NCBI GenBank assembly: GCA_044222185.1
Contig: JBGANV010000001.1
Span: 1,789,337 to 1,853,336, forward strand
Origin: Planctomycetota bacterium
GTDB taxonomy: Bacteria; Planctomycetota; GCA-002687715; CAIWVZ01
Reading direction: 5' to 3'
DNA length: 64,000 nt
Shown here one piece after another: positions 48,282-61,141 of the stretch. The notes under the pieces are model-generated. The model did not search any database and had not been told where the DNA came from. It was given only the letters and a program-made list of their open reading frames with translations. Each line of letters starts with the position of its first letter. The stretch's first letter is position 1. The position numbers and the translations under genes were made by a program.

Positions 48282-49304
48282 GTGATCCGAGCACGCACCT
48301 TCTCGCTTGCCGCCCTCTCCCTCCTGGTGCTCTCCGGATGCGACACTTCGGCGCCGCTCGCGGTCTTCGCGCGGGACGAGGGCCTGGTCGCCCTGGCGAC
48401 GGGTCAGCCCGGCGACGAGTTCGCGCTGTTCGCCGGTCCCGCGAACGGACCGCATCACCTGGGGAACGGTCGCGTGTGGACGACCGTCGGCAGCGAGCAG
48501 CCTGTACCGAAGGGGTCGGGCCGCGAACTGGGGCATGGCGTCTTTCCGGCGGCGGATGACCACGGGATCGCGGTCGTGACCCTCGTCGTTCCCTGGGACA
48601 AGCTCCCGGAGGACGTGGTCGTCGTCCAAGGCGTCGTCTTCGTCGGTGCCGACCGCCGGCAGGCCCCTCGCGGAGTGACAGCGGCGTACGCCGTGCGGGG
48701 CCCCCCCAATCCGCGTGAGGTCTGGCAGCACTGGCTCTTCACGCTCCTGTGGCCGCTGCGATGGCGGTGGCTGGTCCTTCCCGCGCTCGCGATCGTGGTT
48801 CTCGGGCTTCGTCGGGTACGGATCGCGCCAGCTCCCCGGATCTGGCGGATCGCGGCGCTGCTCGCCTGCGCGGTCTGGCTCCTCGGCGAGCGCGGCGACG
48901 TGCCCCGAGCGAAATTCGCTCAAACCGGTTCCGATCGGGCCATGCCGCTGATCTGGCCGCGGGGCGATCAACGGCAGGCCTCGCCCTCGAGCCCGGTCGA
49001 CCGACTCATGCGACCGGGAGTCGAGGCGCTCATCACCGCCACACGTGAACTCGTGCCGCCCACCGCGTCGCTCGTGGTCGTCCCCAGATCCTCCGACGGA
49101 CCGGCGCAGCGCGAGGCCATGGAGGCGAACTGGATGCTCTGGCCGCGCGTTCGGGCGGCGGCGCTGCCGAACGAATCGTGGCGCACGGCCGCCGAGTACG
49201 CGCTCGTGTTCACTCCTCCGACGCCTGCCGACTCGACGGCGACCGCGGTCTTCAAGAACGATGCCGGCGTGATCCTGCGACTGAAGACGGAGGAGCCGCG
49301 GTGA
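48282..49304 (+). CDS. Lipoprotein/membrane protein, function unknown
   Basis: A GTG start yields the signal peptide MIRARTFSLAALSLLVLSGC with a lipobox. An alternative GTG start lies at 48234. Two internal hydrophobic helices. Confidence 0.5.
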   Translation: MIRARTFSLAALSLLVLSGCDTSAPLAVFARDEGLVALATGQPGDEFALFAGPANGPHHLGNGRVWTTVGSEQPVPKGSGRELGHGVFPAADDHGIAVVTLVVPWDKLPEDVVVVQGVVFVGADRRQAPRGVTAAYAVRGPPNPREVWQHWLFTLLWPLRWRWLVLPALAIVVLGLRRVRIAPAPRIWRIAALLACAVWLLGERGDVPRAKFAQTGSDRAMPLIWPRGDQRQASPSSPVDRLMRPGVEALITATRELVPPTASLVVVPRSSDGPAQREAMEANWMLWPRVRAAALPNESWRTAAEYALVFTPPTPADSTATAVFKNDAGVILRLKTEEPR

Positions 49305-50761
49305 TCAGCGATACCCACCTCTTCTCGTCCGCCGCCATGCTCCTCCTCGCGTGGCCTCTCGGCTGGCTCGCGTCGGCCTTCCTCCCGAGCCCCACGTCGC
49401 GCATCGCACGCGGTGGCACCACGCTCCTCGCTGGGCTTGCCGGTTCGGCCGCGATTCTCAACGCGCTCCTCTGCCTGGGATTCACCGCCGGGACGGGCGG
49501 CGTGATCTGTGCGACCGCGGGCGTGCTCGGCGCGAGCGCACGGGTCGTGTCGATGAGACGCACGAAGGGGATCGTCACGAGCGAGCCTGGACCGCCCGTT
49601 GCGACGCGTGTCTTCGCGGAGTTCGCCGCCGTCGTCACCGTGGGGCTGGTCTGCGCCACGCCGGCGTTTCACGTTCACGACGTGATCGTCCACGACCACG
49701 ACGCCGTGTACATCTGGGCACCGAAGATCGCGCGTGCGTTGACGGAAGCGCCACCGCGTCTGAGCGACATCTCAGTGCAGTTCCATCCCGAGTATCCGCG
49801 CGGCCTGGCCGTCCTGACCGCCGCAGTCGGTGCCGCGTTCCAGCCCATCGACCCGAGACTCCCGCGCGCAGTGCCCCTCGTCATCTTCGCGGCGATGCTG
49901 CTCGCCGTGTTCGATGCCTTGGCCTGCCGCCGCAACGTCACAGGCGGAGCACTCGCGGTGCTGATCCTCGGCGCGCTTCCGCTCCTCGTCCACTACGGCA
50001 TCTCGGGGTTGTGCGACGTGCCGCTGGCCGCGTGCATGGTCCTCGTCACGATGGGGCTCGCGCCCACGGCGACGGGCGCGCGCGCCTGGCCGCTCGCGCT
50101 CGCGGGCGCCCTCGGGGCCGCGTCTCTGAAGGACGAAGGAATGATCGCCGCCGTCGCGTCCGTGGCGGTGATGCTCGTCTGGGCACTTCGCCAGCGCCGC
50201 GTTGGAGTCACGCTGGGAGTCGTCGCGGCCTGCGTCGCCGTGCTCGGGCCGTGGCTCATGCTGAAGCGGCAACTCATGCAAGAGCTGCTGAAGGACGACC
50301 CGATCCGCGGCCTCAGTGGGTTCGCGAGCATGGGCCGCAGCTTCTTCATGCTCGACAGCGGCCGGCAGAACCTGGGAATGCTCCTGCTTCGCGTCGATCA
50401 ACTCGTCCGCGAAGTGGCACACCTTCTCCTCGGCTTCCCCGACCCGTCGCCGGGCGGAGTCGCAATGCCCATGGTGACGCCGGGCGCGAACACGGCCGGG
50501 CACGTGGCCCTCGTCGCCATGGGAATCCTGGTCGTCGGACGGCAGCGCGTATTCCCGATATTGCCCGTGGGGATTCTCCTCGCAGCGCACTTCGTCGTCG
50601 TTGCGATCACTCCCGAGCCACTCGATTGGCAGGTGATGACCGCCTACGATCGGCTGCTGCTCCAGGCGACGCCCGCTCTGGTCCTGGCGGCCATCCACCG
50701 CCTGACGGCGCCGGTGTCTCAGCCGGCGACCGTAGGCACGAGCGGCAACCCGAGCACGTGA
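49301..50761 (+). CDS. Polytopic membrane protein (~12 TM), function unknown
   Basis: GTG start forming a GTGA overlap with the upstream stop. AGGAG lies 5 nt upstream. Highly hydrophobic throughout. Confidence 0.55.
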   Translation: MISDTHLFSSAAMLLLAWPLGWLASAFLPSPTSRIARGGTTLLAGLAGSAAILNALLCLGFTAGTGGVICATAGVLGASARVVSMRRTKGIVTSEPGPPVATRVFAEFAAVVTVGLVCATPAFHVHDVIVHDHDAVYIWAPKIARALTEAPPRLSDISVQFHPEYPRGLAVLTAAVGAAFQPIDPRLPRAVPLVIFAAMLLAVFDALACRRNVTGGALAVLILGALPLLVHYGISGLCDVPLAACMVLVTMGLAPTATGARAWPLALAGALGAASLKDEGMIAAVASVAVMLVWALRQRRVGVTLGVVAACVAVLGPWLMLKRQLMQELLKDDPIRGLSGFASMGRSFFMLDSGRQNLGMLLLRVDQLVREVAHLLLGFPDPSPGGVAMPMVTPGANTAGHVALVAMGILVVGRQRVFPILPVGILLAAHFVVVAITPEPLDWQVMTAYDRLLLQATPALVLAAIHRLTAPVSQPATVGTSGNPST

Positions 50762-51990
50762 CGTCGGATCAGATCCAACGCACGCTCGCGTGCGTAGAGT
50801 CGGATCGCTTGCCGGTCGCCGACGAATCCGTGCCGGATCGCGACGGTCCCGCGCGCATCGGCCAGAGCGAACCAGGTCGTACCGACGGGCTTCGCATCCG
50901 AGCCGCCGCTCGGGCCCGCGATGCCCGAGACAGACAGCGCGAGGTCCGCGCGTCCGCGTGTGCGCGCGCCCTCGGCCATGGCGCGGACGCACGCCTCCGA
51001 CACGGCGCCCGATGTCGCCAGCGTCTCGGGCATGACACCCAGCAGGTCGACCTTCGCCTCGTTCGCATACGTCACGAACCCGGCCTTGAAGATCTGGGAG
51101 ATCCCCGGGACCTCCACGAGCGCGTCGGCGATCATGCCGCCGGTGATGGACTCGGCCAGCGCAAGCGTGATGTTCCGTTTCAGCAGCAGCTCGCCGACGC
51201 AGACGTTCATGGGGACGTCTCCGTCCGCGACGACGGCATCACCCAGGCGGCGACGGATCTCGGCCACGTCGTCATCGAGCTTGCGCGACGCCCGCGCGCC
51301 GTCCGGGTCGCGTGACTCGAGGGCGAGGACCACGCGGCCGAGCTTGGGATAACTGCCGATTTGCGGATCGCGTCCGCGGGCCATGAGGTCGGCGACGAGT
51401 TGGCCGACCCGAACCTCGGGGACGCCCGCGATCGTCACCTGCCTCGCCGCGGGCGCGGGGCCGCGCGCGGCGCGGGCGCGGATGCGCGGGATGAGCTCCG
51501 TCTCCGCGATGACGCGGAACTCCGAGGGGACGCCGGGCAGGACGATCAGGAGCCCCTTCGCGTCGTCGAGCAGAATCGCGGGCGCGGTGCCGACGGGATT
51601 CGCGACCATCTTCGTCCCCAGGGGGAGATCCGCCTGGACGAGACTCCCTTCCGGCATGGGACGGTTGCGCCTCGCGTAGATGTCCTCGAGGAAGGCGACG
51701 GCGGCGGGGTCGCGACCCAGCGTCACGCCCATGGCGAGAGCCAGCCCCTCACGCGTCAGGTCGTCCCGCGTCGGTCCCAGCCCCCCGCCGACGACGACCA
51801 CGTCCGCACGGGATCGCGCGTCGGTGATGGCGGCGGCGATGGCGCCGACGTCATCCTCCACGGTCGCGCGGAACGTCACGGGGAATCCGTTCGACCGAAG
51901 CAGGCTGCTCAACCAATGGGCATTCAGGTCGACGACCCGCCCAGCCAGGAGTTCGTCGCCCACGCTGATGATGGCCGCGCCGGACTTCAT
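50719..51990 (-). CDS. cinA: CinA-family competence/damage-inducible protein (MoCF-binding N-domain plus C-terminal CinA nicotinamide-nucleotide amidase domain)
   Basis: N-terminal AAIISVGDELLAGRVVDLN and C-terminal LALAESITGGMIADAL motifs. ATGA overlap with the tatC stop. Confidence 0.85.
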   Translation of the reverse strand: MKSGAAIISVGDELLAGRVVDLNAHWLSSLLRSNGFPVTFRATVEDDVGAIAAAITDARSRADVVVVGGGLGPTRDDLTREGLALAMGVTLGRDPAAVAFLEDIYARRNRPMPEGSLVQADLPLGTKMVANPVGTAPAILLDDAKGLLIVLPGVPSEFRVIAETELIPRIRARAARGPAPAARQVTIAGVPEVRVGQLVADLMARGRDPQIGSYPKLGRVVLALESRDPDGARASRKLDDDVAEIRRRLGDAVVADGDVPMNVCVGELLLKRNITLALAESITGGMIADALVEVPGISQIFKAGFVTYANEAKVDLLGVMPETLATSGAVSEACVRAMAEGARTRGRADLALSVSGIAGPSGGSDAKPVGTTWFALADARGTVAIRHGFVGDRQAIRLYARERALDLIRRHVLGLPLVPTVAG

Positions 51991-53354
51991 CGGGGGCTCC
52001 GCCGCGAATCGCCCGCGGTATCGGGTTGGATGAACGATTCGGCGCCATGCACGCCGACCCAATCCTGTGCGGCCTTCAGTGCGGCGTCGCGATCGTCCGG
52101 AAGCCGGGTGTGCATGAGGATCTCGAAGACGCGCCGGGCGAACGCCCGCGTGTCGGAGCCGCCGGATTCCAACGCCGTGAGGACGGCGCGGAGCGTTTGG
52201 GAAAGCGGGAGGTTCGCGGGGGTGGAGATGTCCCACACGGTGGCGCCGGCCTGAATGCTCATCGCGCGGTATCCACCGCTGCGGACTTCGACGGCCACGG
52301 CCTTCTCGTCCGACGGATTGAACTGCAGGCACGCGAGGCGATCGCCCGCCGTGATGAGCATCAGAGGTGAATTCACCGCCTCCCCCACCTGCATGGCGCC
52401 GTCGGCTCGAACACCGAACACGTTTCGTCCGAGTTCCCGCCACGGCAGATTCCCGTCCGTCGCCATCTCGACGCGGCGATCGGCCTGCATTCCCGCCCAG
52501 AACCGCTCGAGGCGGCTACGCAGCAGGATCAGGACGATGAGCACACCGGCGATGATGCGCGCCCGCTTGCGCCAGAGGTCCCACCGCACGGGCGGGCGAT
52601 CCTGGCCCTGGGCAAGCCAGCACAGGAGGATCCCCATCTCGAAGAGGAAGCACAGCGGAAGTGCGACGAGCGACTGAGTGATCGGGTCCGGCGGCGTGAT
52701 GACCCCCGAGACCACGAAGATGATGAGGATCGTGATGCGTCGCTTCTTGCGGAACGTCTCGGGCGTGAAGATCCCGGCCTTCACCAAGCCGATCATCACG
52801 ACCGGAAACTGGAATGCGACTCCCACCAAGAGCGTGAGCGTGGAGAAGAACGAGAGGTACTCGCCGAGCTGGATCCAGCTCTGGATGATCGCGGGGTCGG
52901 CGAAGCGAAGGAGGTACCCGAGTCCGACGGGAAGCAGGGTCAGGTAACCGAACACGGTGCCGGCGATGAACAGGAACAGTGAAAGCGGCGCGAACCGATA
53001 GACCCAGCGCTTCTCGCGGTCGTAGAGGCCGGCGGCGATGAAAGCCCAAAGCTGGTAGAGCCAGACCGGCGCGGCCGTCGCGAGCCCGACGATGAGCCCG
53101 ATCTTGAAGTAGGTGACGAAGGTCTCGGTCACCCCGGCGACCTTCAGCGTCGGGTCCGCGTGCAACGCCCGCATCGCCGACTGGTAGGGGGCGACGATCA
53201 CCTCCATCAGCTCGGACGCGAAGCATGACGCGACGACCGTCGTGACGAGCGTCGCGAGCAGCGAACGGATCAGCCGAGTTCGAAGCTCGTCCAGATGCTC
53301 GCCAAACGTCATCCGGGATCGGTCGAGAGGGTCAGGCGTCGTGGCGTCACCCAT
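51987..53354 (-). CDS. tatC: Sec-independent translocase TatC with ~190-aa C-terminal extension (extra TM helix plus soluble domain)
   Basis: Residues ~14-265 form a canonical six-TM TatC (FGEHLDELRTRLIRS...). The ORF then continues in frame through an additional hydrophobic helix and ~150 more residues. Confidence 0.8.
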   Translation of the reverse strand: MGDATTPDPLDRSRMTFGEHLDELRTRLIRSLLATLVTTVVASCFASELMEVIVAPYQSAMRALHADPTLKVAGVTETFVTYFKIGLIVGLATAAPVWLYQLWAFIAAGLYDREKRWVYRFAPLSLFLFIAGTVFGYLTLLPVGLGYLLRFADPAIIQSWIQLGEYLSFFSTLTLLVGVAFQFPVVMIGLVKAGIFTPETFRKKRRITILIIFVVSGVITPPDPITQSLVALPLCFLFEMGILLCWLAQGQDRPPVRWDLWRKRARIIAGVLIVLILLRSRLERFWAGMQADRRVEMATDGNLPWRELGRNVFGVRADGAMQVGEAVNSPLMLITAGDRLACLQFNPSDEKAVAVEVRSGGYRAMSIQAGATVWDISTPANLPLSQTLRAVLTALESGGSDTRAFARRVFEILMHTRLPDDRDAALKAAQDWVGVHGAESFIQPDTAGDSRRSPR

Positions 53355-53469
53355 GGGCGCGGCCAGCGTGGCACGAACTGCGCCGGCGCAGAAGAGGCGT
53401 CACCCCCAGGAACGAAAGCACCCCGTCTCCGGCGTGCGGAGGACGGGGTGTTCGGTGCGACGAGCGAGG

Positions 53470-54744
53470 TCAGTTCGAGAGGTACGTTTCGAGATCGCGC
53501 GAGCGGATGACCTCGATGCCCCACGCCTGCGCCTGCTTGTAGTCGGCCGACTCGGTCAGTTCCGGTGCATCCGGGGCTTCCTTGAGTCCGAGGACGACGA
53601 AGTCCGTCTCGACCGTGACCTTGTCATCGACCTTGGCGCCCGACTGCTCGAGCATGCGCTTGGCGACTTCCTTGTTGTATCGGCCCGTGAGCTCGCCGAG
53701 GAACACGAAGCGGGTCGCGCGGGTCGGGTCGAAGAAGGGATTGGTGATCCAATCGCCCTCGGCGATGCCAGCCATCGTGGCGTCGGAATCGACGCGGCAC
53801 TCGGACTTGTCGGCCTCGACGCTCGTGACGGTGATGCGCCCCTTCAGGAGCTTCTCGCCGCCCTTGACCGTCTCGTAGACCTTGAAGGTCGTCCCGCGAC
53901 GCAGGCGCTGCTTGCCGCCCACGTTGATCCACAGCGTGCCCATGGCGCGGTTGACGGCGAGAACCTTGCCGTCCGGCTTCTCGGTGTCGCGCTGCGTGCG
54001 GAGGTTCGCCTTCAGCGAATTCACGCTCGCCTCGAGGGTCTTCATCTGGCCCTTGGCGGTGGTGACTTCCTTGTTGGAGGTCTCCTTCGCCTTGCCGACC
54101 TCGTCGGTGAGCTCGCGATTCTTCGCCTGGGCGTCGTCACGCTGGGTGTTCGATTCGTTGAGCTGCTGCGACAGGCGCGCGGTCTGGTTCTCGCGCTCCG
54201 TGTTCAGCTCCTGCTGCTTGGCAGCGGCCGCGGCTTCGGCATCGCTCAACCGCTTGGTGAGGCTGGCGATCTCGGCGTCCTTGGTGTCGACGACGGCCGA
54301 CACGGCGCCCTTGTCGTTCTTGACGGCCTTGTAGCGGCTGGACAGCTTGTCGAGCGCATCGACGAGGATGACCGGTGCAGCCGTCTCCTCCGTCTGCGTC
54401 GCCGCTTCCTTCATCCGCATGCGAACGGCGTCGAGGTGCTTGCCGAGGACTTCCGGGTCCTGGGGAAGGACTGCGCCGCGCTTGTCCCAGTTGTCAGGCT
54501 TGGGGAGTTCGGCCGGAACCGGCGCGCCGATGATCTTGGCGAGTTCCGCGTAGCAACCCTCGGCGAAGCCGAGCTTGTTCTCGCCCGCTTCAGCCTTGGC
54601 CTTCTCGGCTTCGAGCTTCTTGGCGAGGTCGCCGTTGTCCTGCATCTGTGTGAACCACAGGACGGCAAACACCAACATCACGATCACGACGACGATCAGG
54701 AAGACGACGTTGACGGCGCCGCGCTCCAACTTCGCAGATGACAT
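53470..54744 (-). CDS. Membrane-anchored coiled-coil protein with C-terminal BRCT domain
   Basis: N-terminal TM helix (VNVVFLIVVVIVMLVFAVLW), then ~200 aa of K/E/A/Q-rich coiled coil. The C-terminal ~80 aa align convincingly with the LigA-type BRCT domain (FVFLGEL...GAKV...TDFVVLG...AQAWGIEVI...L..YL). Confidence 0.6.
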   Translation of the reverse strand: MSSAKLERGAVNVVFLIVVVIVMLVFAVLWFTQMQDNGDLAKKLEAEKAKAEAGENKLGFAEGCYAELAKIIGAPVPAELPKPDNWDKRGAVLPQDPEVLGKHLDAVRMRMKEAATQTEETAAPVILVDALDKLSSRYKAVKNDKGAVSAVVDTKDAEIASLTKRLSDAEAAAAAKQQELNTERENQTARLSQQLNESNTQRDDAQAKNRELTDEVGKAKETSNKEVTTAKGQMKTLEASVNSLKANLRTQRDTEKPDGKVLAVNRAMGTLWINVGGKQRLRRGTTFKVYETVKGGEKLLKGRITVTSVEADKSECRVDSDATMAGIAEGDWITNPFFDPTRATRFVFLGELTGRYNKEVAKRMLEQSGAKVDDKVTVETDFVVLGLKEAPDAPELTESADYKQAQAWGIEVIRSRDLETYLSN

Positions 54745-55007
54745 CCGCTAATCTCCATCAGGGCGGCCGATTCGGGCGCCCCTGCCCCCAATTGGGCTGT
54801 CCAGTCCAATGTGCGTGACGTCCCCCATGACGCGACAGAACACGGGGTTACCCGTACCATCTTTTTCCTAGGTGAACGAAGCGGCGGGATTCTAAGCGCC
54901 TCGCGGAAGTCACGTCAAGCCGAGGTTTGCGACCGGAGCGGCTTCCCGGGTGCCCGGAGGACGACGTCACTTGCGGACTCCGGCACGTTCCGCGCAGGAT
55001 CCGAGCC

Positions 55008-55664
55008 ATGAATCCTCCGATCCTCCTCGGAATCACAGGCGGCATCGGCAGCGGAAAAACTGCCGTCGCCAGCGGTCTCGCGGCGCAGGGCGCGGCAGTC
55101 ATCGAGGCGGATCGGCTCGTCCACGAGGCCCATGCCAGGCCTGCCATCCGAGACCGGATCGTCGCAGCCCTCGGAAAATCAGTCCTCGACGCCGCCGGAG
55201 GCCTCGATCGCCGTGCGATCGCAGCTCGGGTCTTCGGGCCGGGCGCGGATGCGGAGACGTCGCGCCGGGCCCTCGAGGCGATCCTCCACCCCGCCGTCCG
55301 GGAGATGATCGGCGAACGCCTCGCCGAGCTCGCCTCCGCAGCATCTCCACCGGCAGTCGTCGTGTTGGATGCCCCGCTCGTGGTCGAGGGCCCGCTCCGG
55401 CACGTGTGTGACGCCATCGTTTTCGTCGACGCCCCCGTCGAATTGCGCCGCGCCCGCACGGTCTCGACCCGGGGGTGGGGCCCGGGCGAGCTGGACGTTC
55501 GCGAACGGGCCCAGGCCTCCCTGGACGAGAAGCGCGCGGCGTCGCGGTACGTCATCCGCAACGACGGAGACCCCGCCGGACTTGCGACTCGGTGCGCAAC
55601 CCTCTTCCGTCAGGTGGTCGCCGACTTCCCAGCCGGCGGTCGAGGCGCGCGCCACGGCACCTGA
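55008..55664 (+). CDS. coaE: Dephospho-CoA kinase
   Basis: ILLGITGGIGSGKT P-loop at the N-terminus. ~218 aa. Confidence 0.8.
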   Translation: MNPPILLGITGGIGSGKTAVASGLAAQGAAVIEADRLVHEAHARPAIRDRIVAALGKSVLDAAGGLDRRAIAARVFGPGADAETSRRALEAILHPAVREMIGERLAELASAASPPAVVVLDAPLVVEGPLRHVCDAIVFVDAPVELRRARTVSTRGWGPGELDVRERAQASLDEKRAASRYVIRNDGDPAGLATRCATLFRQVVADFPAGGRGARHGT

Positions 55665-55744
55665 TTGTCCGCCGATCCTCCACGGATAACCTCCTTCGCG
55701 CTCATCGAGGTTCGTTCAACCGACGAGCCCGTCAGCGTCATGCC

Positions 55745-57658
55745 GTGCCCGAGAGTCTGACCTCTCAAATTTCCGTCCCAGCACACCCCGAAGCGCGAGG
55801 AAACGCGCTGATCGGGTTGTCGATCGCCGCACTGGGCGTCGTCTACGGGGACATCGGCACGAGCCCTCTCTACGCGTTCCGCGAGTGCTTCAACGGCCCT
55901 CACGCCACGGCCGTCAGTGCGGAGAGCGTCCTCGGCGTCCTCTCGCTCATGGTGTGGTCGCTGATCACCGTCGTCTGCGCCAAGTACCTCACGCTGCTGA
56001 TGCGCGCCGACAACCACGGTGAAGGCGGGATCTTCGCCCTGCTCGCGCTCCTGGGCCCGAGCCGAGATCCGTCGGTACGGCGGCGCGTGTTGTTCATGGC
56101 GGGGGTCTTCGGCGCGGCGCTCCTCTACGGGGACGGCATGATCACTCCGTCGATCACCGTGCTCGGTGCCGTCGAAGGACTTTCCGAGGCGACGCCGGCC
56201 CTGACGCCCTACGTGGTGCCGATCTCCGTCGTCATCCTCGTCGTTCTGTTCCTCGTTCAGCAGCGCGGCACCGCCAAGGTCGGCGCGATCTTCGGCCCCA
56301 TCTGCATGGTCTGGTTCGCAGCGATCGCCGCCCTGGGCTTGCGCGGAATCGTCGGCGAGCCCAGGGTCCTCGCGGCGTTCAACCCGATCCTCGGGATCAC
56401 GTTCGTCGTCCACCACGGCTTCCACGGATTCCTGCTCTTCGGATCCGTCGTCCTCACGGTCACGGGGGCCGAGGCCCTCTACGCCGACATGGGCCACTTC
56501 GGAAAGTCCCCGATCCGGTGGGCCTGGTACGTGGTGGTGCTCCCGTCGCTCCTGTGCAACTACTTCGGGCAGGGCGCGTGGCTCATCCAGCACCCGGACG
56601 CAGCGACGAACCCCTTCTACGCGCTCGTCCCGTCCTGGGGTCTCTACCCCATGGTCGGGATCGCAACGCTGGCTGCATGCGTGGCGTCACAGGCGCTCAT
56701 CTCCGGGGCCTATTCGTTGACGCAACAAGCGCACCAGCTCGGGTATTCGCCGCGGGTGACGATCGTCCACACCTCGGACGCAAAGGCCGGGCAGATCTAC
56801 ATTCCCGAGGTCAACTACGCGCTGATGCTGGCCTGCGTGGGCTTGACCGTCGGCTTCGGAAGTTCGGCACGGCTCGCTGGCGCCTACGGCCTGGCGGTGA
56901 CAGGAACCATGCTGATCACGACGGCACTCTTCTACACCGTCGCGCGACGACGCTGGATGTGGAGCCGGCCGCTCGCGATGTCCGTCGCCAGTCTCTTCAT
57001 GGTCGTGGACGTGGTCTTCCTCGCCGCCAACGTGCCGAAGATCCCGGACGGGGGTTGGTTCCCGCTCGTGATGGGCGTGGGGATCTTCGTCGTGATGTTC
57101 ACCTGGAAGCAGGGCCGCGACATGCTGGCGCAGTTCGCGCGCACGCACGGCATCGAGACGGAGGCGCTGGTGCGGGACGTCGCCAGCAAGAAGCCCTACC
57201 GGATCCCCGGCACGGCGATCTTCATGAGCTCGGACCCGGAGACCGTGCCGCCGGCGCTGCTTCACCACCTGAAACACAACAAGGTGCTCCACGAGCGGGT
57301 CCTGCTGCTCTCGTTCCTCACGGAGGACGTGCCTCGCGTCGCCGAGCACCGCCGCGTGGAATGCAAGGACCTCGGTGAGGGCTTCTACCAGGTGACCGGG
57401 CACTACGGGTTCGTCGAAACGCCCTACGTTCCCGCCGTGCTGCGCGCACTCAGCGAGTTCAACCTCCGCGTGAAACCAGGTGAGTCGACCTTCTACCTCG
57501 GTCGCCAGACGCTCTTGCCCGTGAAGAAGAAGGGCGGCATGGCGCTGTGGCGCAAGCGGCTCTTCGTGTTCCTGACGCGCAATGCGCCATCGGCGAGCAC
57601 GTTCTTCAGCATCCCGCCCAATCGCGTCGTCGACATGGGGGCGCAAGTCGAAATCTGA
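55745..57658 (+). CDS. kup: Low-affinity K+ uptake transporter Kup (KUP/HAK/KT family)
   Basis: Signature AALGVVYGDIGTSPLY near the N-terminus, ~12 TM helices and a cytoplasmic C-domain. GTG start inferred, and the exact start is uncertain. Confidence 0.85.
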   Translation: MPESLTSQISVPAHPEARGNALIGLSIAALGVVYGDIGTSPLYAFRECFNGPHATAVSAESVLGVLSLMVWSLITVVCAKYLTLLMRADNHGEGGIFALLALLGPSRDPSVRRRVLFMAGVFGAALLYGDGMITPSITVLGAVEGLSEATPALTPYVVPISVVILVVLFLVQQRGTAKVGAIFGPICMVWFAAIAALGLRGIVGEPRVLAAFNPILGITFVVHHGFHGFLLFGSVVLTVTGAEALYADMGHFGKSPIRWAWYVVVLPSLLCNYFGQGAWLIQHPDAATNPFYALVPSWGLYPMVGIATLAACVASQALISGAYSLTQQAHQLGYSPRVTIVHTSDAKAGQIYIPEVNYALMLACVGLTVGFGSSARLAGAYGLAVTGTMLITTALFYTVARRRWMWSRPLAMSVASLFMVVDVVFLAANVPKIPDGGWFPLVMGVGIFVVMFTWKQGRDMLAQFARTHGIETEALVRDVASKKPYRIPGTAIFMSSDPETVPPALLHHLKHNKVLHERVLLLSFLTEDVPRVAEHRRVECKDLGEGFYQVTGHYGFVETPYVPAVLRALSEFNLRVKPGESTFYLGRQTLLPVKKKGGMALWRKRLFVFLTRNAPSASTFFSIPPNRVVDMGAQVEI

Positions 57659-58003: not shown

Positions 58004-61000
58004 TCACTTCGACGGCGAGGATTCGGGCAGCGACGTCGGGCGAGATTCCGGCGGCGCCGGCGGCGGGCCACCGAGCCCTCGGATGAGGCGCTCGTGATTC
58101 GTCTGCGCCCAATGCTCGAACGCATCGCGACGGTCGTTCGCGTCTTCGATCGGCGACGACATCGTCAACGGCGGGAGGCGCTCGTCGGTCAGCGCGCGCA
58201 GCCGGGCATCGACGGCCTCACGCAGAGCCGGGTTGCGCTCCGTGAGCACCTTGAGCAGCACGGCAAAGCCCTTCGCGTCGAGCTTCCCACCACCGAGCCA
58301 TGACTCGAGGAAGACCGTGTCGAGCTTCAGCTCCCGCAGCGCGAGGCGGAACCACTCGCTCCGGTCGAGCTTGCCGAAATCATCGGAGAACTTCTGGTAC
58401 TCGGCACGACGAAGCGCTGGTGCCTTGGCCGTCGAGACGAAGTACGTGAGCTGGTTGAACGCGCGCTCGGCGAACGGGTCCCCTTCGGGGTTCGCCAGCG
58501 CGCGCAAGAGGTGAGGCATCGCCTCCGGCGCACCGAGTCGCGCCAGCGTCAGGACGGCGACGCGGCGCAGGTCTGCGTCATCCGAGTTGAGCGACGGGAG
58601 AAGGTCGGGAACCGCGCCCTCCCCCTTCGACGACGCCAGAGCCTCGATCGCCTGCAACCGCACGTCACGTGACTTGCTTCGGGCGTACGCGTCGGCGATC
58701 TCGGCCGTCGCCTCCGAACCGCCGATTCGCGCGAGCGTCGACAGGGCTTCGCAGCAAACCTGCACGTCCGTGTGCTCCCGGACGATTCCACCGAGGGCGA
58801 CGATGGCGCGCCGCCCACGCGAGGCCGAAAGTCCGCGGAGAACGGCGTAACGATCGTGCACGTCTCCGTCCCGGAAGATCTCCATGAGACGGGCGACGCC
58901 CTGCTCGCGCATGACGGTGCCGATCGCCTCGATGGCCCGCACGCGAAGCGGCTTGTCTGGCGAGTTGATCACCGCCTCGAGCATGGCGGGGACGCGATCG
59001 TCGTCGAACGACGCCAGGGTCCGCACGCAGGCATCGCGCACGCGTGGCTCGTAGTCTTTCAGCCCGTCGATGAGGATCGAAACGACGTCGCGGTCGCCGC
59101 GGAAACGTGCGAGTGCCTCCGCGGCCGCGGCGCGCATGTTCGCCTGCTCCGAACGAAGCGCGGCCATCACGTTGGTCCTGGGCTGTTTCGCGAGGAACTG
59201 GCGCAAGACTTCCGCCGTACGCGCTCCGGGCGAGCGGCCGAGGAACGCGAGCACTTCCTCTCGCACCGGCACCGTATCGACGACCGCAAGCACGTCGATG
59301 AGCCGCGCTGCCGCCTCGGACAGCGTCTTCTCCTCGCGCAGCAACGCGATCAGCCGATCCGCGTTCCGCGCGCGAAACTCGGGTGCGGACACGGACAGCA
59401 GGTCCACGGCGGCGAGCCGGGCGTCCTCGCCGAACAACGGGTAGTTGTCGAGCGCGAGTTGCAGCAGCTTGTCCCGCTGCGCCTCGACCGGTGCGGAATG
59501 GAAGAACTCGGCGTTGTCCGCGAAGTAGCGCGCCCTCCCCTGCGGATCCGTGGGCGCGAACCGCTGCCACGCCAGCGATCGCTTCAGATCGAACAGCGTC
59601 TTCTCGAGCGCGTCGATCTCCGGCGGGAACGGCGCGTAATGACGCCGTGTGAACTCGTCCGGACCCCGGCGCAGAGTGATCTCGATCACGGGATCGGTGC
59701 GCGACGGGTCTTTCGTGTCGCCGCGCACGGCGAAGAACCGCGCGGAGTCCAGAGCCTTCTTGATGGCGTCCCGATCCGGGGCGCCGAGGACGAGGGGCTG
59801 GCCCGGCAGGTTCCGGTCCAGGACCGTGACGTCGCCGGTGAGCAACGCGGCCCGCTCCCCGCCTTCCATCCCGCTCACGCGGATCGACACGGTGCACCTG
59901 GCGAGGTCGTCGACCGTCACCATGCGCAGCTGGCGCCGCGCGACGAATCCGTTCTCGGCACGCTTCCAGTAGGCGCGCCACCGAGATGACGTGGGCCCGT
60001 AGCTCTCGCCGCTGATCAGCTCCATCTTCCGGTAGCCCAGTTCCTCCACCGCGACGTAGTCGTTGAAGAAGCTTCCGCCAGCCACCGTGTCGATGAGGAT
60101 CGGCATCAGGTACTTGTCCGCGATCGCGCGGAGCGTGGCGTCGTCCGTCCGAAACGACACGTTCGCGAGCGCGATGGCCGCGGCACCCCGGTAGAACGGG
60201 TCGTCGCCCTGCAGCATGCGCAGCGCGCGGTCGCGCACCGACTCGTTGTCGGGAATCAACACGACGCCCTTCACGTCCTCCGCCTCCGTCAGCGCGAGCA
60301 ACGCGTACGCCGCCTGCCGCTGCGTGCCCGTGCGGGCGAGGGCCAGGAGTTTCTTGAACTCCGTCTCCGTGCCGTGCCGCGCGACGTGCCGCGCGGCGAC
60401 CGCAGCCACGCCCACCTCCGGGTCGGCGAGTGCATCGATGAACTCGTCGCGCGACGCGGAGTCCGGCACCCGCGTCATGAGGTCCATGGCGACGGCGCGC
60501 GTCTGCGCCGTGCGTGATTTGAACAGCGTGATGAGGTCCGGCATGTACTGCGGATCGAGGACGGCCGGCAGCGCGTTCTGCGCCGCGAGCCGCACACGGC
60601 CGACCTGGTGCGTGAGGAACGGGAGGAGCTGACGGGGCCCCGCGATCGGATCGATGCGAATCAGCGCGGCCATCAAGTCGGCCAGCGCAGCGCCGTTCGT
60701 CGGCTCGCGGATCGCGGCGATCAACGAGGGCGTCGCGGCCTTGGCGCCCATCTCACCGAGCGCGAACGCGCTGGCGGCTTGGACGCGCCAGTCGTTGTTC
60801 CCGAGCCCGGCGATGAGCCGAGGCTCGACGCTCGCGCCCAGACCCGAGAGGGCGATGGCCGCGTCCTTCCCCGGTTTCGCCGGCCAGCGCGACAGCCGTC
60901 CGAAGAGCGTCTCCACGGGATCGCCGCTCGTCGGTGCCGGCGCGTCCTGGGGCGCGGTGGCGGGAGCGTCCGCCGGGCGAGAGTCGGCGGGCTTCGCCAC

Positions 61001-61141
61001 GTCGTCCCCGGGCGAGAAGACGGGCCTCGCGCCGGGCTTCCCGGCGCGAGGCGGGTTGACGTGCGTCGGAGGGTTGTTCTGCGCCGTGAGGACGACCGCG
61101 GCGAGACTCCAAGCGAGGAGCGTGACGACAGACTTGAGCAT
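58004..61141 (-). CDS. Large secreted HEAT/PBS-lyase-like repeat protein (1045 aa)
   Basis: Signal peptide (MLKSVVTLLAWSLAAVVLTAQ). Many ~30-aa repeats of the pattern ..VR..A..ALG.IG...A...L...L.D.... typical of HEAT-like repeats. Confidence 0.65.
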   Translation of the reverse strand: MLKSVVTLLAWSLAAVVLTAQNNPPTHVNPPRAGKPGARPVFSPGDDVAKPADSRPADAPATAPQDAPAPTSGDPVETLFGRLSRWPAKPGKDAAIALSGLGASVEPRLIAGLGNNDWRVQAASAFALGEMGAKAATPSLIAAIREPTNGAALADLMAALIRIDPIAGPRQLLPFLTHQVGRVRLAAQNALPAVLDPQYMPDLITLFKSRTAQTRAVAMDLMTRVPDSASRDEFIDALADPEVGVAAVAARHVARHGTETEFKKLLALARTGTQRQAAYALLALTEAEDVKGVVLIPDNESVRDRALRMLQGDDPFYRGAAAIALANVSFRTDDATLRAIADKYLMPILIDTVAGGSFFNDYVAVEELGYRKMELISGESYGPTSSRWRAYWKRAENGFVARRQLRMVTVDDLARCTVSIRVSGMEGGERAALLTGDVTVLDRNLPGQPLVLGAPDRDAIKKALDSARFFAVRGDTKDPSRTDPVIEITLRRGPDEFTRRHYAPFPPEIDALEKTLFDLKRSLAWQRFAPTDPQGRARYFADNAEFFHSAPVEAQRDKLLQLALDNYPLFGEDARLAAVDLLSVSAPEFRARNADRLIALLREEKTLSEAAARLIDVLAVVDTVPVREEVLAFLGRSPGARTAEVLRQFLAKQPRTNVMAALRSEQANMRAAAAEALARFRGDRDVVSILIDGLKDYEPRVRDACVRTLASFDDDRVPAMLEAVINSPDKPLRVRAIEAIGTVMREQGVARLMEIFRDGDVHDRYAVLRGLSASRGRRAIVALGGIVREHTDVQVCCEALSTLARIGGSEATAEIADAYARSKSRDVRLQAIEALASSKGEGAVPDLLPSLNSDDADLRRVAVLTLARLGAPEAMPHLLRALANPEGDPFAERAFNQLTYFVSTAKAPALRRAEYQKFSDDFGKLDRSEWFRLALRELKLDTVFLESWLGGGKLDAKGFAVLLKVLTERNPALREAVDARLRALTDERLPPLTMSSPIEDANDRRDAFEHWAQTNHERLIRGLGGPPPAPPESRPTSLPESSPSK

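Follow-up and report, generated by a model that had tools for sequence, protein, structure and literature searches.

The subject of this analysis is a gene on the reverse strand (53470..54744) of a 64,000-nucleotide stretch of DNA from a Planctomycetota bacterium (GenBank assembly GCA_044222185.1, contig JBGANV010000001.1, positions 1,789,337 to 1,853,336 of the forward strand), which we call the window and from whose first letter all coordinates are counted. The gene product joins a single membrane helix, by way of a long helical stalk, to a small beta-barrel and a C-terminal BRCT domain of the LigA/RFC1 type that has lost its phosphate-binding motifs, and it belongs to a large family that spans the class Phycisphaerae and is undescribed and uncharacterised in the searchable literature. 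Textbooks present BRCT domains as phospho- and DNA-binding modules of the nucleus and cytoplasm; discussion of them in bacteria is almost confined to LigA. The parts of the protein are known singly (the BRCT domain, the FlgT_C-like barrel, the coiled-coil anchor); what the searched literature does not describe is their combination, the loss of the pocket, the probable extracytoplasmic site and the class-wide status. A LigA-type BRCT domain has here been recruited to the end of a membrane-anchored stalk, beside a FlgT/MreC-like barrel, and this architecture has become a core protein of an entire Planctomycetota class, with thousands of sequence clusters. Tentatively, we propose a bitopic inner-membrane protein whose periplasmic stalk, tipped by the barrel and the degenerate BRCT domain, may act as an envelope scaffold or tether.

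The gene and its family

A first-pass annotation, made from the sequence alone, had noticed at this position a membrane-anchored coiled-coil protein ending in a BRCT domain, and the observation is confirmed. The gene is real and complete, with an ATG start and 424 codons followed by a stop; a database protein on an NCBI contig is 100% identical to its product, and the 34 further homologues found at E <= 1e-3, mostly of 408-449 amino acids, all come from metagenomes or metagenome-assembled genomes (MAGs) labelled Planctomycetota. The start codon is right, since the N-termini of the homologues align from their first residues. Upstream of the ATG, and on the same strand, lie a Shine-Dalgarno-like GGAG at a distance of 9-12 nucleotides (54753..54756) and, 145 nucleotides away, a candidate sigma-70-like promoter, TTGACG-18-TAGAAT (54889..54918), of which the consensus scan found one site against 0.1 expected in shuffles. 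A terminator-like hairpin (12 pairs, one bulge, -20 kcal/mol), followed by a GCUUUCGUU tail, begins 21 nucleotides past the stop codon (53411..53449, reverse strand), and a comparable hairpin with a T-rich tail stands 3' of the orthologue in six of 12 related loci. The open reading frame (ORF) of 499 amino acids that covers nearly the whole gene on the forward strand (53242..54741) is a shadow ORF, typical of such high-G+C DNA (66% in the gene region); the homology evidence lies entirely on the reverse strand. Neither a second BRCT-like module nor a paralogue of the gene was found within the window.

We defined the family by its barrel and BRCT module and used a profile of this module to search 1.84 billion cluster representatives (clusters at 50% identity), which gave 5212 matches at E <= 1e-3, 3239 at E <= 1e-10 and 775 at E <= 1e-30. 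The best 150 of the 5212 matches are mostly 400-500 amino acids long, and the module is found at or near the C-terminus in all of them. When genome contigs were scanned, a single-protein query gave no match and a 12-sequence alignment succeeded. The named sources are Phycisphaerales MAGs, Tepidisphaeraceae, Humisphaera and Sedimentisphaerales/Phycisphaerae, so that the orders Phycisphaerales, Tepidisphaerales and Sedimentisphaerales are represented. In the databases the members are named 'hypothetical protein', 'BRCT domain-containing protein' or 'DUF3887 domain-containing protein'; the automatic labels 'NAD-dependent DNA ligase' and 'pseudopilin PulG', which some of them carry, are wrong. Full-text searches combining BRCT with Planctomycetes, BRCT with periplasmic or transmembrane, and Planctomycetes division with coiled coil found no literature on the family.

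Several variants of the architecture exist. In a large Sedimentisphaerales-type subfamily of more than 100 clusters, which includes P0110, P0035 and locus L022 (8001-9821), an inserted DUF3887 domain (79 bits) separates the membrane helix from the stalk; sister forms of 473-484 amino acids, with 76-86% identity over about 60% of the query, appear without it, which suggests that the insertion was gained or lost recently. Two BRCT-like domains are present in P0161 (478 amino acids), where one of them is inserted in the barrel before its last strand, and in P0049 (583 amino acids), where the second is appended at the C-terminus. Two paralogues, P0204 and P0243, share one Tepidisphaeraceae MAG (ABIP55_15870 and ABIP55_16820), so some genomes hold more than one copy.

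The BRCT domain and its phosphate pocket

The BRCT domain comprises residues 343-424 (53473..53718, reverse strand). Residues 356-414 match the Pfam model PF00533 with 26.5 bits against a threshold of 21.3 (E 7.7e-6); scores among the relatives, of which ten selected ones were run through Pfam, reach 61.6 bits, for the inserted domain of P0161, and many fall below the cutoff (16.7-19.5 bits). The last 175 residues were modelled separately (predicted local distance difference test, pLDDT, 86.7), and the model consists of two domains, a barrel and then an alpha/beta domain, the latter with a four-stranded parallel sheet and three flanking helices in the order b1-a1-b2-b3-a2-b4-a3. The C-terminal domain is therefore a genuine BRCT domain of the LigA/RFC1 type, in agreement with the first-pass annotation, which had called it LigA-like, sharing with these both the fold and a detectable sequence homology: F346, G350, G369-A-K-V, T380-D-F-V-V-L-G and A405 align with the 'FV.TG...GGKV...T.YLV.G' of LigA. 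The adenylation, OB, zinc-finger and HhH domains of the ligase are absent, and TIGR00575 scores 23.5 bits (cutoff 444), over model positions 586-649 only.

The residues conserved in the domain are those of the fold core (F346, G350, G369, T380, D381, G386, Y402 and A405), and the phosphate-binding residues are not among them. Two motifs, Ser/Thr-Gly within the b1-a1 loop and Thr/Ser-x-Lys at a2's N-terminus, define the BRCT domains that bind phosphate (PMC10386641). In the HMMER alignment, the Thr position of the LigA/RFC1 'TG' is occupied by Leu349, beside a Gly350 that is invariant in the family, and among 132 diverse representatives position 349 is L (39), E (22), Y (19), A (16), V (11), F (10) or I (6). 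Where the second motif would stand, residues 401-403 read D-Y-K, in an alignment that is uncertain near an insertion of about 10 residues ahead of a2, itself a difference from the LigA domain; position 401 is A, D, E, R, Q or H in the family, and only 24 of the 132 representatives have K at position 403. The domain also differs from that of LigA in being acidic: its net charge lies between -2 and -7 in 14 of the 17 members aligned, and two distant ones have 0 and +3. Judged by these residues, the phosphate pocket is absent across the family. The first-pass annotation had seen in the protein a scaffold that tethers a phosphopeptide- or DNA-binding module to the membrane, a suggestion that is not supported, since the pocket motifs are missing and the domain is acidic; we infer that the BRCT module here would bind neither phosphate nor DNA. 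For the same two reasons, the domain is most likely a protein-protein contact or packing module beside a barrel that is more strongly conserved.

The beta-barrel

The other domain of the separate model is a six-stranded beta-barrel (residues 256-338; 53731..53979, reverse strand) that the first-pass annotation had not noticed. Three charged barrel residues are near-invariant among the 132 representatives, D258 (129), K301 (122) and D331 (132), and are candidates for the surface; the barrel is thus no less probable a seat of the specific function than the BRCT domain. Its fold matches that of the FlgT C-terminal domain (PF16538; PDB 3w1e, 8z5n), the FlgT-like domains of TsaP, and MreC. Foldseek matches to two-domain proteins of the ferredoxin-reductase type were rejected as a generic resemblance of barrel plus Rossmann domain (root-mean-square deviation 13-15 A, TM about 0.3).

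These relatives raise the question of whether the protein should be placed, as a divergent member, in a known family of envelope or division proteins such as MreC, FlgT or TolA, and not in a family of its own; we regard this as improbable. With FlgT and TsaP only the fold of the C-domain is shared: the N and M domains of FlgT and the LysM domain of TsaP are lacking, the gene context is neither flagellar nor pilus-related, and the barrel scores 16.5 bits with the Pfam FlgT_C model, below its cutoff of 27. The build of helix, coiled coil and barrel is that of MreC; against this, the model has one barrel and not two, a BRCT domain is added, the gene does not lie beside mreB or mreD, and PF04085 (MreC) gave no Pfam or NCBIfam match at E <= 1. 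TolA begins with a short positive tail and a membrane helix, has acidic residues after the helix, and continues with a long helical domain rich in A, K and E that leads to a globular alpha/beta domain at the C-terminus. The same layout of tail, helix, acidic residues, A/K/E-rich stalk and globular tip recurs here, a likeness of plan only, as there is no sequence or fold match to domain III of TolA, no conserved Ser-x3-His and no neighbouring tolQR. No Pfam or NCBIfam match to MreC, TolA or full-length FlgT models was found, and none of the three families has a BRCT domain.

The helical stalk

An AlphaFold2 model of the whole protein, built on a 27-sequence alignment, places helices at residues 10-72 and 97-117 in the membrane-proximal region (54394..54651, reverse strand; pLDDT 45-70), with a proline-rich linker of low confidence between them (residues 73-96). 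They are followed by a single helix of 126 residues (127-252; 53989..54366, reverse strand) predicted with pLDDT >90, which would be about 19 nm long if straight, as calculated from the model. Hydrophobic residues are locally enriched at the heptad a and d positions of this helix, above 500 of 500 shuffles, and a single global 3.5-residue period across residues 127-252 is not significant, so the heptad register shifts along the helix. The stalk also gave weak matches to SMC and Filament coiled-coil models. Of the K/E-rich coiled coil of about 200 residues described in the first-pass annotation, the long helical and coiled-coil region stands, and 'K/E-rich' is only approximate, as alanine (15.7%) exceeds lysine (10.8%) and glutamate (10.3%) in residues 33-255, with leucine at 9%.

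At the centre of the long helix lies a polar core, NTE(K/R)EN..ARL.QQLNE.N.QRD.AQ..NR, that is conserved in the 12 closest homologues, with R190, R202 and D203 invariant among them; this conservation exceeds what a generic coiled coil needs. A single-sequence PDB search yielded nothing beyond matches of residues 95-143 to a VCP-like ATPase (E 0.007), which were at chance level and were rejected as compositional.

The membrane anchor and the orientation of the protein

The N-terminal tail is short (residues 1-10; 54715..54744, reverse strand) and ends in Arg-Gly-Ala; R8, G9, A10 and V11 are invariant in the 12 close homologues. The single transmembrane helix that follows (residues 11-31; 54652..54714, reverse strand) has a mean Kyte-Doolittle value of 3.43 over 19 residues and is a helix in the AlphaFold2 model as well, and none of 189 relatives has a second hydrophobic segment. 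This bears out the membrane anchor of the first-pass annotation, for which a cleaved signal peptide was the alternative. Because the uncharged stretch is about 27 residues long, no small-x-small cleavage site was found at it, and a search of 305 relatives for lipobox or cleavable-signal variants, as a sign of export, found none bar one lipobox, the stretch is, as far as can be judged, an anchor and not a cleaved signal peptide. Two other candidates were rejected: a Tat signal, since the main clade has one Arg before the helix and no twin-arginine motif, and a Ser-x3-His motif of the TonB/TolA type, which is not conserved in the helix (position 12 is N, H or S).

The C-terminal part probably lies in the periplasm (N-in/C-out), for which three indirect lines speak: the distribution of charges about the helix, the periplasmic relatives of the barrel and the DUF3887 insertion. 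In most of 389 relatives the last charged residue N-terminal of the hydrophobic stretch is R or K, the tail is nearly free of acidic residues, and the first charged residue past the stretch is Asp or Glu in about two-thirds; when net charges are compared, the N flank is more positive than the other in 136 of 165 relatives. Known C-in anchors such as ZipA and EzrA have a K/R cluster directly past the helix, and the family has none. FlgT, TsaP and MreC, the nearest structural relatives of the barrel, are all periplasmic. The DUF3887 domain of the Sedimentisphaerales-type subfamily lies on the same side of the membrane as the barrel and the BRCT domain; DUF3887 has been described as an extracellular NTF2-like domain, on the ground that signal peptides, lipoboxes or outward topologies are a consistent feature of the proteins that carry it (PMC3924330). 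Two points weigh on the other side, namely that counts of K+R alone are neutral on orientation, and that, to our knowledge, BRCT domains have not been reported from outside the cytoplasm. With the C-terminal part likely outside the cytoplasm, DNA and phosphoprotein ligands are not expected there.

The main alternative, in line with the reading of the first-pass annotation, has the opposite orientation (N-out/C-in, like ZipA and EzrA): with its stalk and BRCT module in the cytoplasm, the protein would be a scaffold that brings DNA, or a protein that may be phosphorylated, to the membrane. The BRCT domains characterised so far all function in the nucleus or cytoplasm, the closest sequence relatives of this one are the BRCT domains of LigA and RFC1, which contact DNA, the two BRCT domains of P0049 and P0161 are reminiscent of tandem BRCTs, and the K+R counts taken alone are compatible with such a scaffold. 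We nevertheless consider it unlikely, given the family-wide absence of both phosphate-binding motifs, the acidity of the domain, the mostly acidic first charge past the helix with no K/R cluster there, the DUF3887 insertion and the periplasmic kinship of the barrel; the conserved Arg before the helix, in addition, disfavours translocation of the tail. Binding of phosphopeptides or DNA is the least supported version of this alternative.

Proposed role

In the periplasmic arrangement that we prefer, the short positive tail would remain in the cytoplasm, one uncleaved signal-anchor helix would cross the membrane, and the remaining ~390 residues would lie in the periplasm. The helical stalk, made of the 126-residue helix and the shorter ones, would probably self-associate, probably as a parallel coiled coil, and would carry at its tip the FlgT/MreC-type barrel and the BRCT-fold module. 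We infer both the oligomerisation and the scaffold role, in which the protein would serve as a structural scaffold or tether that keeps a partner (the cell wall, the outer membrane or a periplasmic machinery) at a fixed spacing from the inner membrane, with a build like that of MreC, TolA, FlgT or TsaP.

Phycisphaerae divide by binary fission without FtsZ, and their cell biology is poorly understood. A periplasmic placement, if true, would extend the range in which the BRCT fold is known and would provide a handle on envelope organisation in this class. A bolder version, which we hold to be doubtful, is that the BRCT fold has moved out of the cytoplasm to give the first extracytoplasmic BRCT-domain protein, its tip contacting the wall or the outer membrane, perhaps as a TolA/MreC-like envelope organiser in FtsZ-less bacteria.

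Genomic neighbourhood and tatC

The gene lies directly upstream of a tatC gene (51987..53354, reverse strand; 455 amino acids; Pfam TatC 223 bits, TIGR00945 198 bits), as the first-pass annotation had pointed out, and tatC starts 115 nucleotides downstream of it. This adjacency is real and conserved within the clade: every Phycisphaerales-type locus that is long enough has the order coaE (divergent), the gene, tatC, in some loci ychF, and cinA, and the coaE/gene/tatC order persists down to 24-28% protein identity. It could be taken to mean that the protein is an accessory or receptor of the Tat translocase, either TatB-like or docking substrates, that works with the extended TatC. The conserved order would favour such a role, as would the result of a regular-expression scan of the six frames of the window, in which no ORF of the TatA/TatB type (a hydrophobic stretch followed by FG-x-[KR]-[LIVM]-P) was found. 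A Tat role is nonetheless very improbable. The syntenic block as a whole, including coaE, cinA and in some loci ychF, consists of unrelated housekeeping genes, and the link between the gene and tatC is no more specific than that between tatC and cinA. In other orders the adjacency is absent: members of the Tepidisphaerales type adjoin a response regulator and an aminotransferase, and a member of the Sedimentisphaerales type lies upstream of rpsG-fusA. The adjacency also holds where TatC is of normal length (256 amino acids, locus L008), and the gap between the two genes contains the terminator-like hairpin described above, as it does in six of the 12 related loci. Within the protein itself, MttA_Hcf106 (PF02416, TatA/B) gave no match even at E <= 1, and the sequence past the helix reads WFTQMQDNGD, without FG-x-KLP. 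We read the adjacency as a clade-limited, inherited gene order and not as an operon partnership. One further family member has polA upstream.

The tatC gene of the window stands without an adjacent tatA. Its product has, after the six canonical hydrophobic segments, a seventh (residues 267-285) preceded by RWDLWRKRAR, and then a tail of about 170 amino acids that would be periplasmic if the seventh segment is membrane-spanning. Conservation of the tail, at 32% identity, is limited to L001 and L002; TatC has 256 amino acids in L008 and 324 in L006.

On the other side of the gene, coaE (54927..55664, forward strand) is divergent from it, as in all related loci. Past coaE follows an ORF for a Kup potassium transporter (55475..57658, forward strand), at a place where the related loci have rho; the two ORFs overlap by about 190 nucleotides, so that at least one of their true starts must lie further downstream. 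Opposite the 3' end of cinA lies an ORF of 527 amino acids with many hydrophobic segments (49178..50761, forward strand), which Pfam did not match at E <= 1e-4. Beyond kup, the reverse strand encodes a HEAT-repeat protein of 1045 amino acids (58004..61141; HEAT_2 138 bits), and since locus L003 has a 996-amino-acid HEAT protein similarly placed upstream of rho-coaE, the HEAT gene is part of the conserved block.
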